A program made the position numbers and the translations under genes. A stretch of DNA of 64,000 nt from positions 840-64,839 of the forward strand of contig CAIMUF010000052.1 in NCBI GenBank assembly GCA_903844635.1. Reading direction: 5' to 3'. The notes under the pieces are model-generated. The model searched no databases and had not been told where the DNA came from. It saw only the letters and a list, made by a program, of their open reading frames with translations. This stretch comes from an uncultured Sulfuricurvum sp. (lineage in GTDB: Bacteria; Campylobacterota; Campylobacteria; Campylobacterales; Sulfurimonadaceae). Positions 12,912 through 60,552 of the stretch are shown one piece after another (within the stretch, counting starts at the first letter, position 1; each line of letters opens with the position of its first letter).

Positions 12912-13018
12912 CGTCATTCCCGCGTAAGCGGGAATCCAGCTCTTTTTAAAATTAAACTATTACTCCAAAAATTAATAACAAATACTCTTAGCTGGATTCC
13001 CGCCTACGCGGGAATGAC
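12912..13018. repeat. Inverted pair of GTCATTCCCGCG-type REP palindromes (REPIN-like)
   Basis: CGTCATTCCCGCGTAAGCGGGAATCCAGC at 12912-12940 and an inverted copy at 12991-13018. Confidence 0.9.
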
Positions 13019-20115: not shown

Positions 20116-21170
20116 ACACTATTTTAGTCACCGGATGCGCCGGATTTATCGGGAGCAACTTCGTCCCTTACTTTTTAGACAAATATCCAGAAGTTCGTCT
20201 CATTAACCTAGACCTTCTCACTTATGCCGGCGATATGGCAAATCTCTCTGATGCACCACAAAGCGATCGTCATATCTTCGTCCAAGGAGACATTTGTGAC
20301 CGTTCTCTTGTCGAGTCACTTTTTACCCAATACGACATTCGTGGCGTGATTCATTTCGCGGCTGAGAGTCACGTCGATAACAGCATCAAAAACCCAGGTG
20401 TCTTTGTCCAAACCAACGTCAATGGAAGTTTTATCCTTATCGATGTTGCCTACAAAGCATGGATGGAAAAACCGTTCACCTACCGTCATTCCGGACTAGA
20501 TCCGGAATCCACTCCCCGTTTCCACCATATCAGCACCGATGAAGTCTACGGAACGCTAGGAGAAACAGGACTCTTTACTGAAGAGACATCTTATGCTCCT
20601 AACAGCCCTTACAGTGCATCCAAAGCAGGAAGCGATATGATCGTCCGCAGTTACCACCATACCTACGGCATGAACACTGTCATCACTAACTGTTCGAACA
20701 ACTATGGTCCAAAACAGCATAACGAAAAACTAATCCCGACCGTTATCCGCAAAGCACTAGCCGGCGAGAATATCCCTGTCTACGGTGACGGTAAAAACAT
20801 CCGTGATTGGCTCTATGTCCTCGACCACTGTAAGGGGATTGATTTGGTTTATCACAACGGAAGATCAGGGGAAGTCTATAATATCGGTGGACGCAATGAG
20901 CGCAACAACAATCAAATCGTTGAACGTATCTGCAGCTTGCTCGATGAGATGCACCCTCGTCATCCTGAACTTGATTCAGGATCTACCCCATCTTATAAAG
21001 ACCTTATCACCTACGTCGAAGACCGAGCAGGACACGACCGTCGTTATGCTATCGATGCTACCAAACTCGAAACAGAACTGGGATGGAAAGCTCAAGAGAC
21101 GTTTGATACGGGGATTTTGAAAACGATCGAGTGGTATCTAAAAAAATACAGTAATAATAACGATGACTAA
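20112..21170 (+). CDS. rfbB: dTDP-glucose 4,6-dehydratase carrying two REP-encoded peptide inserts
   Basis: [44 protein letters not shown]. Confidence 0.95.
   Translation: MNTILVTGCAGFIGSNFVPYFLDKYPEVRLINLDLLTYAGDMANLSDAPQSDRHIFVQGDICDRSLVESLFTQYDIRGVIHFAAESHVDNSIKNPGVFVQTNVNGSFILIDVAYKAWMEKPFTYRHSGLDPESTPRFHHISTDEVYGTLGETGLFTEETSYAPNSPYSASKAGSDMIVRSYHHTYGMNTVITNCSNNYGPKQHNEKLIPTVIRKALAGENIPVYGDGKNIRDWLYVLDHCKGIDLVYHNGRSGEVYNIGGRNERNNNQIVERICSLLDEMHPRHPELDSGSTPSYKDLITYVEDRAGHDRRYAIDATKLETELGWKAQETFDTGILKTIEWYLKKYSNNNDD
20484..20516 (+). repeat. In-frame REP palindrome inside rfbB (RHSGLDPESTP)
   Basis: CGTC-ATTCCGGA-CTAGA-TCCGGAAT-CC, perfect 8-bp stem. Confidence 0.85.
20958..20990 (+). 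repeat. In-frame REP palindrome inside rfbB (RHPELDSGSTP)
   Basis: CGTC-ATCCTGAA-CTTGA-TTCAGGAT-CT, perfect 8-bp stem. Confidence 0.85.
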
Positions 21171-21185
21171 AAATAGAAGTTACTG

Positions 21186-21416
21186 ATGAAAAATATGACT
21201 GTAGCAGATATAATACAAAAGCTAAATCAATTACCGCAGGATGCTTTAGTATTAGTCGATGGATATGAAGGCGGATTAGATGCAGTTATAGATACTAAAG
21301 TAATCCATATTCTTTACGATGAAAAAAAAGAGTGGTACTATGGTCCATATGAAGACTCTGAAAATTCCACTCAAGTAGGTGTTTATCTTTTAAGTACGCG
21401 AGGTAAGAGACATTGA
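21186..21416 (+). CDS. Small hypothetical protein
   Basis: 76-aa ORF coupled to the downstream MNT gene; MTVADIIQKLNQLPQD...VDGYEGG. Confidence 0.65.
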   Translation: MKNMTVADIIQKLNQLPQDALVLVDGYEGGLDAVIDTKVIHILYDEKKEWYYGPYEDSENSTQVGVYLLSTRGKRH

Positions 21417-21741
21417 TTGACATTGAAACACTTAAAGCCGAAATTATAGAACGATTAAAACCACTTAATCCCCAAAAAATCATACTCTTTGGAAGCTATG
21501 CGTATGGAACTCCTACAGAAGATAGCGATATAGATTTATACGTAGTGACTAATGATGAATTTATGCCTCAAAACTGGAAAGAGAAGAGTGAAGTTCATTT
21601 AAAAGTCGCAAAAGCTATAGAAGAAATAATGAAAAAATTTCCCACAGATTTAATAACTCACACTAAAGCTATGCATGAGAAATTTAAAGAAATGGATAGT
21701 ATGTTCAGTAGAAAAATATTAAATGAAGGGATCGTTATACG

Positions 21742-21745
<4 letters not shown>
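21413..21745 (+). CDS. Minimal nucleotidyltransferase (MNT antitoxin-like)
   Basis: LFGSYAYGTPTEDSDIDL (GS-x10-DxD). Confidence 0.88.
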
Positions 21746-22309
<564 letters not shown>

Positions 22310-22441: not shown

Positions 22442-23863
22442 ATGACCAATATTATTCTGTGTGGCGGAAGCGGTACACGCCTTTGGCCGATTAGTCGAAC
22501 CCTTATGCCCAAGCAATTTGTAAAACTTTTTGGTGACACCCCAGGGCAGTCTCTCTTGCAACGCAATTCACCTCCCAAATCTCTTTTTCAACTTACCGTA
22601 GAGCGTAATATTCCTCTTTGCAGCGAACAATTCATTGTCTCTAATGCCGAGCAGTATTTTTTAGCTTTGGATCAACTTGGCGAAATGAATGCGCAAAGTA
22701 ATCACTACCTTCTTGAGCCTGTTGGCAGAAATACGGCTCCGGCGATTGCATTGGCTTGTATGGCACTTGATCCCGAAGAGATCGTTCTTGTAACACCCTC
22801 CGATCATCTCATAAAAAATCAACAATCTTATGCCCAAGCAGTTGAACGCGCGAAAGAGCTGGCATCGCAAGATTATCTCGTAACCTTCGGAATCACTCCA
22901 GCATTTGCTGAAACCGGATTTGGCTATATCGAAGCAGACAAAGAGAATGGCGAAGAAGTTGTAAGTTTTAAAGAAAAACCTGATTTTAATACTGCAACCC
23001 AGTACCTCAATGCCGGAAATTATTATTGGAACAGCGGGATGTTTTGCTTTAAAGCCGGAGTATTTTTAGAAGAGTTACGTGAACTTTCACCGCAGGTGTT
23101 CGAAACCTGTGCAGTAGCTTTTAAAAACGCAACGACCAACGGCATGATCCGTATAGCACATGACGATATGCTTTATATTCCCGAAGACAGTATTGACTAT
23201 GCCGTGATGGAAAAAAGCAATCGCGTCAAAGTCGTAGTAGCCAGCGATATAGAGTGGAGCGACGTAGGGAGTTTCGATGCTCTCTATGAAGAGCTGCCAA
23301 AAGATGCCAACGGCAACACAGTATGCGATAAGCACATCAGTATCGATAGTAAAAACAATCTCGTTCTCTGTGAAGGGCGTAAAATTGCAACCATTGACGT
23401 CGAAGATTTGATCATTGTTGATACAGGTGATGCTTTGCTTGTTTCGAAAAAAGGCTCATCTCAAAAAGTTAAAAACGTGGTCGCAGAACTTAAAAATCGT
23501 AATACCGAGCTTCATAACATCCACCTCACCGCTCACCGTCCATGGGGAACGTATACGATTCTAGAAGACACTCCCGGATATAAGATCAAGAGGATCGTTG
23601 TGCAGCCAGGAAAGCGCTTAAGTTTACAAAAACACTTTCACCGCAGCGAGCATTGGATTGTCGTTAGCGGTACAGCGACAGTTACTGTCGGGGATCAAAC
23701 GCAAATCATCCGCCCCAATGAGTCCACCTATATCAAAATGGGTGAGATCCATCGTCTCGCCAATGATGGGAAAATTCCAGTAGTTCTTATCGAAGCACAA
23801 GTCGGAGAATATACAGGCGAAGATGATATCGTTCGAATTAGTGATGAGTACAACCGCGCATGA
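22442..23863 (+). CDS. manC: Mannose-1-phosphate guanylyltransferase/mannose-6-phosphate isomerase
   Basis: GGSGTRLWP, EPVGRNTAPAI, WSDVGS, RPWG and C-terminal cupin. Confidence 0.95.
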   Translation: MTNIILCGGSGTRLWPISRTLMPKQFVKLFGDTPGQSLLQRNSPPKSLFQLTVERNIPLCSEQFIVSNAEQYFLALDQLGEMNAQSNHYLLEPVGRNTAPAIALACMALDPEEIVLVTPSDHLIKNQQSYAQAVERAKELASQDYLVTFGITPAFAETGFGYIEADKENGEEVVSFKEKPDFNTATQYLNAGNYYWNSGMFCFKAGVFLEELRELSPQVFETCAVAFKNATTNGMIRIAHDDMLYIPEDSIDYAVMEKSNRVKVVVASDIEWSDVGSFDALYEELPKDANGNTVCDKHISIDSKNNLVLCEGRKIATIDVEDLIIVDTGDALLVSKKGSSQKVKNVVAELKNRNTELHNIHLTAHRPWGTYTILEDTPGYKIKRIVVQPGKRLSLQKHFHRSEHWIVVSGTATVTVGDQTQIIRPNESTYIKMGEIHRLANDGKIPVVLIEAQVGEYTGEDDIVRISDEYNRA

Positions 23864-24651
23864 ACCAATTAAAAGCTATTTGGGCGTATCGTTATTTTAT
23901 TATCAGCTCTATCAAAACGGAATTTCGAAGTCGTTTTGCACGTAGCAGTTTAGGCGGTGTCTGGATGGTATTACATCCGCTAGCACAAGTGGCTATTTAC
24001 GCCCTCGTACTCTCAGCCGTCCTTGCTGCCAAACTTCCCGGTATTGACAACCAGTATGCCTATGCTATTTATCTGATGGCTGGGACACTTGGTTGGTCAC
24101 TGTTTGCTGAGGTGTTTGGACGAAGCTTGGGAGTATTTGTTGATAATGGCAATTTACTCAAAAAAATGGCATTTCCAAAAATCGCACTCCCTCTCATCGT
24201 CACGGGCAGTGCATTGGTCAACAACCTTCTCCTCTTTGGAGCAGTATTGGTCGTTTTTGGGATTCTTGGGCACATGCCTACTCTTATGCTCTTGTGGCTG
24301 CCTGTTCTAATTGCTGTAACGCTCGCATTGGCACTCGGGCTAGGTTTAGCGTTAGGTATTATCAATGTTTTTGTGCGCGATATCGGTCAGATCGTCCCGA
24401 TCATTTTACAATTTTGGTTTTGGCTCACCCCTGTCGTGTATGTCTCTACGATGATTCCTGCAAAATATCATGCGCTATTGATGCTCAATCCCATGAGCGG
24501 TATCGTCATGGGGTATCAAAACATCCTTGTATACAACAAAGCCCCAGATGTAAGCACGCTTCTTTATCCGGCTACAATCGCCATTGTAGCACTGTCGCTT
24601 GCCCTCTTTATGTATTTTCGTGCGAATGAAGAAATGGCGGATGCGTTATGA
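23860..24651 (+). CDS. wzm: O-antigen ABC transporter permease Wzm
   Basis: FRSRFARSSLGGVW, RDIGQIVP, WLTPVVY, LNPM. Confidence 0.92.
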   Translation: MNQLKAIWAYRYFIISSIKTEFRSRFARSSLGGVWMVLHPLAQVAIYALVLSAVLAAKLPGIDNQYAYAIYLMAGTLGWSLFAEVFGRSLGVFVDNGNLLKKMAFPKIALPLIVTGSALVNNLLLFGAVLVVFGILGHMPTLMLLWLPVLIAVTLALALGLGLALGIINVFVRDIGQIVPIILQFWFWLTPVVYVSTMIPAKYHALLMLNPMSGIVMGYQNILVYNKAPDVSTLLYPATIAIVALSLALFMYFRANEEMADAL

Positions 24652-24652
24652 T

Positions 24653-25153
24653 AATTTTTAATTTTGAATGCTTAATGTTGAATCAAAACGTAAGAATGAG
24701 CAAGTAGCATGAAGCAAGAAAATATTATCTTAGATAAATCATTTGCTTTTGCAGTGAGAGTTGTAAAACTCTATAAATATTTGTGTGATGAAAAACAAGA
24801 GTATGTTTTATCCAAACAGTTGTTGAGAAGCGGCACCTCCATCGGAGCCAATATCAATGAAGCTCAAGCAGCGCAGAGTACGAACGATTTTATCACCAAA
24901 ATGAGTATCGCAAGCAAAGAAGCGAGAGAAAGCAGATACTGGATAGATCTTTTAATTCAGACAGATTTTCTTGATTCCAGTGAACAACACACTCAAACAT
25001 TGCGAGGCGATATTGATGAGCTTATCAAAATGTTAACATCCATCATTAAAACAACGCAAGAAAGAAATAAAAAATGAATTCAAAATTAAAGATTGACCAA
25101 CGGGAATGCCCTGGGGTTCAGAATTCAGAATTAAACATTCAAAATTCAAAATT
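24653..25153. mobile_element. Four-helix-bundle gene cassette bounded by 31-bp heptamer-based inverted repeats
   Basis: Left arm 24653-24683 vs right arm 25123-25153 match 27/31; flanking (T)GAT direct repeat; excision restores ATG ATT TCG CCT (MISPVLE) overlapping the wzm stop. Confidence 0.65.
24709..25077 (+). CDS. Four helix bundle protein (TIGR02436 / 23S IVS-protein / bAvd-like)
   Basis: DKSFAFAVRVVKLY, SKQLLRSGTSIGANINEA, KMSIASKEARESRYW. Confidence 0.9.
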   Translation: MKQENIILDKSFAFAVRVVKLYKYLCDEKQEYVLSKQLLRSGTSIGANINEAQAAQSTNDFITKMSIASKEARESRYWIDLLIQTDFLDSSEQHTQTLRGDIDELIKMLTSIIKTTQERNKK

Positions 25154-26378
25154 GATTTCGCCTGTCCTCGAAATCAGTAACATCGGCAAAGCCTATCGTA
25201 ACTACGGTAGTGAGCTATGGCGTATCCTCTCGTGGTTCGGACTGCGTTTTAAACCCGTTCATGAGACATGGACACTCCAAAATATCAGCTTTAACATCGC
25301 ACCGGGTGAAGCGATCGGTGTTGTTGGGCAAAACGGTGCAGGCAAAAGCACCTTGCTCAAAATCATTACAGGCACTCTCAAGCCAAGTACTGGCAGTGTA
25401 ACGGTGCACGGTAAAATCGCCGCAATCCTAGAGCTGGGGATGGGATTTCACCCCGACCTTACAGGGCGACAAAATGCCTACCATTCTGCAGGACTTATGG
25501 GCTATACAAGCGCACAAATCGATGCAGTAATCGATCAAATTGAAGCATTTGCAGAGGTCGGAGAGTACTTCGATCAGCCGGTACGTACTTATAGTAGTGG
25601 TATGCAGATGCGTGTAGCATTTGCAACCGTGACCGCCTATCGTCCAGAGATTCTAATTGTCGATGAAGCTATGTCTGTCGGGGATGCCTATTTCCAGCAC
25701 AAAAGCTTTGACCGTATCCGACAGTTCCAGAGCGCGGGAACAACTCTCTTGCTTGTATCTCACGATCGCGGTGCTATTCAGGCGATCTGTGATCGTGCTA
25801 TTTTATTAGAGCAAGGGAAAGTGATCCGAGACGGTGAGCCCGAAGAAGTGATGGATTTTTACAATGCTCTCATCGCGGACAAGGAAAACAGCAAAATTGA
25901 GCAAGTAACACTTGACAATGGAAGAGTCCAGACGATCTCCGGAACAGGCGAAGCCAAAGTCGAAGATATTGGACTCTACAATGACAAAGGCGAAAAAGTA
26001 GAGTTTGTCGGTGTTGGTGATCCAGTAGAGTTACGAGTGAAAGTGAAAATATATCAAGATATTCCATTGCTCGTATTAGGATACGGAATTAAAGATCGCC
26101 TTGGTCAGGTGATGTACGGAACGAATACATGGCTGATGAAGCAAGTATTAGAAGATTTGAAAGCAGGTAATTTGTATAACTTTATAATTACATTTCCCAT
26201 CAATATTGGGGTTGGTAATTATTCAATTCAAACTGCTCTGCATAAACACGATACCCATTTATCTGTCAATTATGAATGGAAAGACTTAGCATTAGTTTTC
26301 AATGTTGTTAATATTGACAAGACTGCTTTTGTTGGATCAACATGGCACGAACCAAAAATAGAAGTTAAACTAATATGA
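25074..26378 (+). CDS. wzt: O-antigen ABC transporter ATPase Wzt with C-terminal carbohydrate-binding domain
   Basis: GQNGAGKST, YSSGMQMR, ILIVDE, C-terminal beta-sandwich; first 26-27 aa derive from the repeat arm. Confidence 0.93.
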   Translation: MNSKLKIDQRECPGVQNSELNIQNSKLISPVLEISNIGKAYRNYGSELWRILSWFGLRFKPVHETWTLQNISFNIAPGEAIGVVGQNGAGKSTLLKIITGTLKPSTGSVTVHGKIAAILELGMGFHPDLTGRQNAYHSAGLMGYTSAQIDAVIDQIEAFAEVGEYFDQPVRTYSSGMQMRVAFATVTAYRPEILIVDEAMSVGDAYFQHKSFDRIRQFQSAGTTLLLVSHDRGAIQAICDRAILLEQGKVIRDGEPEEVMDFYNALIADKENSKIEQVTLDNGRVQTISGTGEAKVEDIGLYNDKGEKVEFVGVGDPVELRVKVKIYQDIPLLVLGYGIKDRLGQVMYGTNTWLMKQVLEDLKAGNLYNFIITFPINIGVGNYSIQTALHKHDTHLSVNYEWKDLALVFNVVNIDKTAFVGSTWHEPKIEVKLI

Positions 26379-60412: not shown

Positions 60413-60485
60413 CGTCATTCACCCGAGGGCACTTCGCCCGCGAATGCGGGAATCCAGCTAGACTCCCGCATTCGCGGGAGTGACG
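60413..60485. repeat. Inverted REP pair; left REP interrupted by a 17-bp insert
   Basis: GTCATT[CACCCGAGGGCACTTCG]CCCGCGAATGCGGGAATCCAGC followed by inverted GTCACTCCCGCGAATGCGGGAGTC. Confidence 0.85.
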
Positions 60486-60552
60486 AATTTATACATGTCA
60501 AAGATTCGATATTCTACCCGATTAGCGGTAAAGAAAACGCTATAATACACAA

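Follow-up and report, generated by a model that had tools for sequence, protein, structure and literature searches.

Palindromic repeats with an unpaired CGTC tag form a described class of repetitive extragenic palindromes (REPs), defined by Di Nocera, De Gregorio and Rocco (2013, PMC3733652) and equated by them with the dRS3 elements of Neisseria and the Rickettsia palindromic elements RPE-4 and RPE-6. That work recorded the class in Sulfurovum NBC37-1 and described in-frame copies inside known genes, sometimes two per gene (e.g., RPE-4/RPE-6 of Rickettsia conorii); REPs at the same site were reported only for Xanthomonas recB, and rmlB is not in the supplementary list of REP-bearing genes. 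The CGTC-2 geometry is given there as an 8-bp stem and a 5-nt loop. The oriented motif has since been renamed NTS or SRM, and a small GIY-YIG nuclease, SsnA, cuts the motif-bearing single strand, with ssnA typically flanked by the motif and NTS inside genes amounting to 2% in N. meningitidis (Chenal et al. 2025, PMC11893778). Here, we describe two CGTC-tagged units lying in frame within rmlB (rfbB) in a stretch of 64,000 nucleotides (the window) from an uncultured Sulfuricurvum sp. of the same order as Sulfurovum (assembly GCA_903844635.1, contig CAIMUF010000052.1). We consider it likely that two non-autonomous REPs of this class became fixed in frame in two tolerant surface loops of the RmlB protein and have since been exchanged between copies.

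Compared with the published CGTC REPs (PMC3733652), the elements found here have the same unpaired CGTC or TGTC tag, a stem of 8-9 bp beginning with AT, a loop of 4-5 nt, a CCA-like tail, pairs in opposite orientation and no dedicated transposase. They differ in host genus and target gene, which are both new, in the replacement of native loop codons, and in the presence of different subfamilies at the same two junctions. The analogy with RPEs drawn in a preliminary description of this DNA is therefore literally correct, as the CGTC REPs have been equated with RPE-4/-6. The NTS/SsnA system (PMC11893778) is matched by single-domain GIY-YIG genes of approximately 95 aa in relatives, which are likewise flanked by the motif (the published SsnA has approximately 94 aa), and by the rarity of genic motifs, 2 of 61 here. 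The present assembly departs from that system in lacking a gene of the SsnA type, and its rmlB units depart from the NTS in loop length (5 nt) and in their stems. The REPs tagged GTAG, with their REPINs and RAYT transposases (Nunvar 2010; Bertels and Rainey 2011), are also short intergenic hairpins with a conserved unpaired tag and often stand in inverted pairs, but the tag here is CGTC rather than GTAG or GTGG and the genome has no Y1 transposase.

The host gene stands last in the order rmlA, rmlC, rmlD, rmlB, its ATG overlapping the rmlD stop (ATGA). In a sequence search of the PDB, the product matched Salmonella RmlB (1g1a) with an E value of 2e-108, and its AlphaFold2 (AF2) model, with a mean pLDDT of 92 and a pTM of 0.91, gave a TM score of 0.88 against 1keu; the input alignment of this model included RmlBs from viral contigs, and close homologues alone gave a pLDDT of 50. 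GxxGxxG, T142-D143-E144 and Y167xxxK171 are all intact, and none of them varies across an alignment with diverse RmlBs. The genome has no other full-length rmlB, the remaining matches being distant paralogues and one 3' fragment. The identical protein is recorded on 6 contigs of a public collection, which makes an artefact of a single assembly unlikely, and its public homologues carry the label Sulfuricurvum. Because the enzyme core is untouched, the RmlB proteins are most likely functional and the added peptides would be close to neutral.

Each unit spans 33 nt, in which the CGTC tag precedes a perfectly paired 8-bp stem with a loop of 5 nt and a tail of the form C(C/T)A (Table 1), and both are in frame with the gene and free of stop codons, the tag and the following bases reading CGT CAT..., i.e., Arg-His...; the preliminary description had identified these same two hairpin units and their peptides, and the sequence and reading frame bear it out. 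The unit 1 stem starts with ATTC and its tail with CCA, and the unit 2 stem starts with ATCC and its tail with CTA. As also observed previously, the two stems differ at three positions, each compensated in the opposite arm, and CCGT occurs on both sides of unit 1, at 20483-20486 and 20516-19, 33 bp apart. A degenerate unit pattern was found at exactly two places in the window, where the chance expectation is 0.17 matches even at ≤3 mismatches. Folding as single-stranded DNA returned the same hairpin for both units, with z-scores of -3.0 and -4.0 relative to shuffles. Judged from the reading frame, the REP peptides are probably translated as 11-residue loop segments of RmlB.

Table 1. Features of the rmlB locus and intergenic REPs of the window (position 1 is the first letter of the window)
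Feature	Position	Strand	Description
rmlB/rfbB, dTDP-glucose 4,6-dehydratase, 352 aa	20112..21170	+	Assigned from ORF (open reading frame), PDB match, AF2 model and motifs
REP unit 1	20484..20516	+	CGTC (20484-20487); stem ATTCCGGA/TCCGGAAT (5' arm 20488-20495, 3' arm 20501-20508); loop CTAGA (20496-20500); tail CCACTCCC (20509-20516); residues R125-P135, RHSGLDPESTP
REP unit 2	20958..20990	+	CGTC (20958-20961); stem ATCCTGAA/TTCAGGAT (5' arm 20962-20969, 3' arm 20975-20982); loop CTTGA (20970-20974); tail CTACCCCA (20983-20990); residues R283-P293, RHPELDSGSTP
Intergenic pair of CGTC-1 REPs	12913..13018	12913-12935 (+), 12996-13018 (-)	Stem ATTCCCGC/GCGGGAAT; 4-nt loop; tail CCAGCT
Composite intergenic REP pair	60413..60487	both strands	Read by eye; forward unit CGTC-1 with extra sequence inside the 5' arm; reverse unit with stem ACTCCCGC/GCGGGAGT

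Both units have the anatomy of a repeat family that is spread through the genome (2.67 Mb in 86 contigs, 39.8% G+C, 96% complete). A genome scan recovered about 61 units with the same tag, stem ends (AT[TC]C...G[AG]AT) and C(C/T)A tail, and a control scan with the reversed pattern gave 0 matches. A CGTC or TGTC tag is present in all 61 genomic units, the two of rmlB included, many of the genomic REPs stand in pairs of opposite orientation 20-60 bp apart, and 59 of the 61 lie outside long ORFs or at their extreme ends, so that only the two rmlB units are deep inside one. One main REP type is CGTC ATTCCCGC GAAG GCGGGAAT CCAGCT, another has a 9-bp stem (ATCCTCGGG CTTGA CCCGGGGAT), and several further types combine an 8-bp stem with a 5-nt loop. 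CGTCATTCCCGCGAAGGCGGGAATCCAG, the main genomic variant, agrees letter for letter with the NTS consensus published as CGTCATTCCCGCGMAVGCGGGAATCYRG, and its exact 27-mer is present on at least 120 contigs from many phyla; the rmlB units are like the NTS in tag, stem ends and tail but unlike it in stem core and loop length. Family membership, as claimed earlier, is confirmed by unit 2, whose 25-nt core is identical to two intergenic copies on contig C74, and the claimed common start with the intergenic REPs of the window is present as CGTCAT at 12913 and 60413. Unit 1 has its tag, loop and tail (CCACTC) in common with the copy at C74:21417. By these sequence features, both rmlB units belong to the CGTC-tagged REP class, also known as dRS3/NTS or Ssn-related motifs, with CGTC-2 geometry.

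Mapping the units onto a structure had been proposed together with the expectation of surface loops, and the model places both in loop coil. R125-P135 forms the coil between the strands 123-124 and 136-141, and R283-P293 falls within the coil 281-294 between the helices 266-280 and 295-298, with the local pLDDT falling to about 80 at both sites. Alignment against 48 RmlBs that are 43-57% identical puts both sites in gap-rich columns; Salmonella RmlB has a shorter loop opposite site 1, just before the RFHHISTDE strand, and an 8-residue gap opposite site 2. Coil, lowered pLDDT and alignment gaps together point to two probable surface loops that tolerate changes in length. Both units are thus in frame, stop-free, missing from close orthologues and located in a loop away from the catalytic residues, as in RPEs. 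The RPE-1 palindromes of Rickettsia are reportedly also in frame, translated and exposed on the protein surface away from catalytic residues (Ogata et al. 2000; Claverie and Ogata 2003), and they reportedly measure 100-150 bp, or 30-50 residues. The likeness lies in palindromic repeats in frame within coding genes, and the difference in the units of 33 nt and 11 residues found here and in the host, a free-living sulfur oxidizer rather than an obligate intracellular bacterium.

Neither peptide is present in 97 of 120 close orthologues (identity 82-100%). REP peptides were counted at site 1 in about 11 of the 120 and at site 2 in about 18, all four combinations of the two sites occur, and the frame is kept in all 23 insert-bearing alleles. 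Orthologues from genomes without REP families had been named as the place where the same peptides might turn up if the REP interpretation were wrong; the sites are empty in all eight REP-poor relatives (1-7 pattern matches) whose orthologue could be aligned, and rmlB genes with REPs were confined to genomes with 31-100 pattern matches, three representative ones in number. The REP interpretation withstands this check.

A codon alignment with the relatives' genomes indicates what the units replaced. A typical empty site 1 reads TAC AAR NNN GGN TAY GAR GGN TGY CGN TTC, and in the occupied state 33 nt (CGT CAT ... ACT CCC) take the place of 21 nt, i.e., of seven native codons (K-x-G-Y-E-G-C). At site 2, 33-36 nt are found in place of 15-18 nt, the native R-x-D-x-K codons being replaced. 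The closest relative with both sites empty (genome G002, 95% amino-acid identity) has TAC AAA GCA GAC TAT GAG GAA TGT AGA TTT at site 1 and CCT CGT CAT GAC ACT AAA AGC TAT at site 2. The units, called inserts in the preliminary description, thus took the place of native loop codons and are not clean insertions. Simple insertion with target-site duplication was likewise rejected: the CCGT on either side of unit 1 is there at the empty site as well, but the seven native codons are missing. The serine codon after site 2 also separates the two states: Ser294 is encoded by TCT in this gene and by TCN in all seven occupied alleles with DNA sequence at hand, whereas the 14 empty alleles from the genus all use AGY.

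The same two junctions hold different REPs in different lineages. At site 2, stem ATCCTGAA occurs in this genome and in G004, ATCCCGTA in alleles P0011 and P0002, and ATTCTGAA in P0018, each paired at 8/8 positions; P0008 has a CGTC-1 unit and G003 its own variant, ATTCCCTAGAGAGCGGGAAT, and all of these REPs are bounded by a Pro codon and TCN-TAT. At site 1, G003 has ATTCCGTA/TACGGAAT, as opposed to the unit 1 stem of this genome. Despite the differing sequences, nearly every occupied allele has full 8/8 pairing in its stems. The site-2 unit of G003 is identical at 30/30 positions to an intergenic copy 248 bp downstream, both in-gene variants of G003 recur elsewhere in that genome, and the unit 2 variant occurs twice more in the genome studied here. 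The in-gene units therefore usually match the REP repertoire of their own genome, which suggests ongoing copying between REPs, and such copying explains the compensated stems as well as selection for the hairpin does. The earlier view that the two units are distinct family members rather than a local duplication is supported by their differing stems, loops and tails; the selection for the hairpin invoked along with it is not required, as copying from REP to REP explains the pairing equally well.

On a metagenome contig (L165, encoding P0002), site 2 has two tandem 21-nt half-units, CGTCATTCCGCACCTGACCCT and CGTCATCCCGCACCTGACCCT, ahead of a complete REP, each half-unit made of tag, 5' arm and loop, and the result is PRHSAPDPRHPAPDPRHPVLDTGSIP. 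Slippage at the REP tag, or partial copying that recurred there, may have produced this arrangement. Other alleles have, at site 2, unrelated peptides of the PISQNSKLNTQN type, to which a peptide in another genus is similar.

The scenario that best accommodates these observations would run as follows. Each REP unit displaced part of a native loop and would be translated as an 11-residue loop segment; the occupied alleles would then have spread patchily among Sulfuricurvum rmlB genes by recombination, and the resident units would repeatedly have been overwritten by, or swapped with, other REPs of the same genome. Overwriting or exchange of this kind would keep the stems perfect and put different subfamilies at identical junctions across lineages. 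The likely driver would be SsnA, the GIY-YIG nuclease for single strands that is associated with REPs and that REP-rich relatives possess.

The history of the sites could also be read as many independent new insertions at two preferred targets (true hotspots), rather than as one colonization per site followed by recombination and replacement, although we regard this as improbable. It would account for the carriers being scattered on the tree, where site 1 takes 10 changes to account for 11 carriers and site 2 takes 17, for the nearest empty site-2 alleles already reading CGTCAT (the REP tag plus the first two stem bases), for the CCGT present at empty site 1, and for the unrelated repeat-like peptides that have also reached site 2. 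What argues for a single origin of the occupied state is that the TCN serine codon and the junctions are the same in 7/7 occupied alleles, with AGY in 14/14 empty ones. Scattered carriers are moreover expected from recombination alone, because the tree is barely resolved and rmlB is visibly mosaic: relative to G002, nucleotide identity is 98, 93, 96, 87 and 90% in successive segments. Counting independent gains on the tree was discarded for the same two reasons, poor resolution and a mosaic gene. The shared TCN codon together with the repertoire match favours a single colonization of each site, with later spread through recombination and with REPs repeatedly copied from one another.

It is similarly unlikely that the hairpins persist because they are selected for a function of the DNA or RNA, be it as SsnA sites, as modulators of recombination or transformation at the border of the conserved rml and the variable O-antigen genes, or as mRNA structures, with the peptides as a tolerated by-product. 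Such selection would resemble what has been proposed for NTS around the surface-antigen genes of Neisseria, where NTS modulate transformation (PMC11893778). The pairing conserved across alleles of differing sequence would fit it, as would the unit 1 stem, which is unique in the genome yet perfectly paired and so leaves some room for hairpin selection. It would also fit the mosaic structure of rmlB relative to G002 and a diverged direct repeat of the rmlB 3' end, beginning about 20 nt after unit 2, that brackets an MNT/HEPN module here and on another contig. On the other side, REP-to-REP copying accounts for perfect stems even in the absence of selection, the units are missing from most rmlB alleles of Sulfuricurvum, no SsnA-type gene is present in the assembly, and the drop in identity to G002 falls within residues 201-280 and not at a REP.

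A bolder version, in which the RmlB loops are maintained docking sites of active CGTC REP exchange and act through SsnA cleavage of single-stranded DNA in the control of recombination or transformation at the edge of the O-antigen genes, seems to us somewhat less likely still. If true, it would make this locus a free-living, non-pathogen counterpart of the NTS clusters at Neisseria surface-antigen genes, and one inside coding sequence. Lastly, that the palindromes arose by chance or in place, unrelated to REPs, or that rmlB is an untranslated decaying pseudogene, is highly improbable, given that the unit 2 core equals two intergenic copies, that both units agree with the family in tag, stem ends, loop and tail, that the chance expectation is far below one, and that the ORF is full-length with intact catalytic motifs, translationally coupled to rmlD, kept in frame in every insert-bearing allele and the sole rmlB of the genome.

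Several points nevertheless weigh against the account of two REPs fixed in tolerant loops and exchanged between copies: (i) the stem of unit 1 has no second copy in the genome, and therefore compensatory change in place or loss of the donor copy must be assumed; (ii) a replacement in one step and an insertion followed by an adjacent deletion both fit the exchange of 21 and of 15-18 nt for 33; (iii) the protein tree is poorly resolved for counts of gain and loss, its well-supported branches forcing only 2-4 changes; and (iv) the genome gave no match to the Y1/RAYT transposase family PF01797, which the control genomes do match, or to the IS110 family PF01548, and a tblastn search of the assembly with two SsnA-type proteins of relatives, both encoded by REP-flanked genes, reached a best E value of only 0.13. 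As the assembly holds no SsnA-type gene, Y1 transposase or IS110, the mobilizing activity cannot be named here. With SsnA absent from this assembly, the units in it may be relics. Absence from the genome itself is not proven by an assembly that is 96% complete in 86 contigs. Several contigs (C16:22, C52:24 in reverse and C80:643) start within a few hundred bases of a REP, which suggests that REP clusters break the assembly, and a REP-flanked ssnA could therefore sit hidden in an assembly gap.

The preliminary description had named a RAYT or a GIY-YIG gene as the possible cognate enzyme; the second half of this proposal was upheld among relatives and the first half was not. Genomes G003 and G013 have 95-aa GIY-YIG genes with REPs on both sides, one of the REPs that flank these genes being the ATCCTGAA variant of unit 2, and their proteins are 53-63% identical to proteins whose genes, in Beta- and Alphaproteobacteria, lie directly beside exact NTS copies. 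With five further genomes of the genus, the SsnA type is present in 7 of the 15 genomes with at least 10 REP matches versus 0 of the 10 with fewer (one-sided Fisher p of about 0.013, ignoring relatedness). Searches of NCBIfam and the PDB with the SsnA-type proteins yielded no usable name, the PDB matches being spurious WD40 hits. RAYT and IS110 were rejected as mobilizers, as neither family has a match in the genome and the Y1 genes of relatives do not track REP counts. Also rejected as a cognate SsnA was the sole small GIY-YIG ORF of this genome (97 aa, contig C54), which has no REP within 1.5 kb, is 32% identical to the SsnA type (E 0.13), and has a better match (38%, E 2e-12) in a third small GIY-YIG type of relatives. 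That third type (approximately 93-97 aa, ...YIYILHCSDNSYYTGHTDNLEKR...), distinct from both the SsnA type and the C54 protein, is found in G005, G006, G008 and G012 (L160, L161, L163 and L164), and in G008 a REP lies about 130 bp upstream of it.

Other repeats were observed in the neighbouring O-antigen locus. Directly 3' of rmlB is an MNT/HEPN gene pair (ORFs 21413-21745 and 21742-22131, in the interval 21413-22300 of the window), after which follows, at about 22139-22300, the diverged copy of the rmlB 3' end (residues 295-348, 85% identical), its source segment starting about 20 nt downstream of unit 2. The same layout of rmlB, a 76-aa ORF, MNT, HEPN and an rmlB fragment was seen on an unrelated metagenome contig (L166). 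Of the peptides in other proteins on which the earlier suggestion of a hotspot for protein remodelling rested, the one in ManC (ORF 22442-23863) is real: a 13-aa insert, TPGQSLLQRNSPP, encoded by 39 bp at 22535-22573, that only G002 shares and that 12 other orthologues do not have. Its DNA forms a small palindrome, TTGC-AAC-GCAA, with one diverged genomic copy at C50:3775 whose stem is compensated (TGGC-TTC-GCCA), and it is a different, low-copy palindromic repeat family. Between wzm and wzt (24651-25160 of the window), inverted AATTCAAAATTC-type repeats flank a small ORF that runs for about 120 codons (approximately 24709-25077). The right arm of these repeats falls at the annotated N-terminus of Wzt, where it reads QNSELNIQNSKL. 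The product of this ORF may resemble the four-helix-bundle "23S rRNA intervening sequence" proteins. Peptides like QNSKLNTQN were seen at rmlB site 2 of the Sulfuricurvum alleles P0007, P0094 and P0100 and of another genus (L024).

As CGTC REPs inside genes have already been published, no new kind of element or mechanism is proposed here. Three details appear to be new, namely the replacement of codons, the recurrence of different subfamilies at the same junctions, and the signs of exchange between genic and intergenic copies. In a single enzyme with solved homologues, empty sites, at least four REP subfamilies, tandem half-units and unrelated repeat peptides are met at the same two loop junctions, providing a natural series on how short selfish palindromes enter and persist in proteins. 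For annotation, the odd RH..LD..S peptides of Sulfuricurvum RmlB proteins are explained. The pairing of REPs with SsnA is extended to the Campylobacterota, and rmlB of Sulfuricurvum offers a testable case of REP exchange between genic and intergenic sites.

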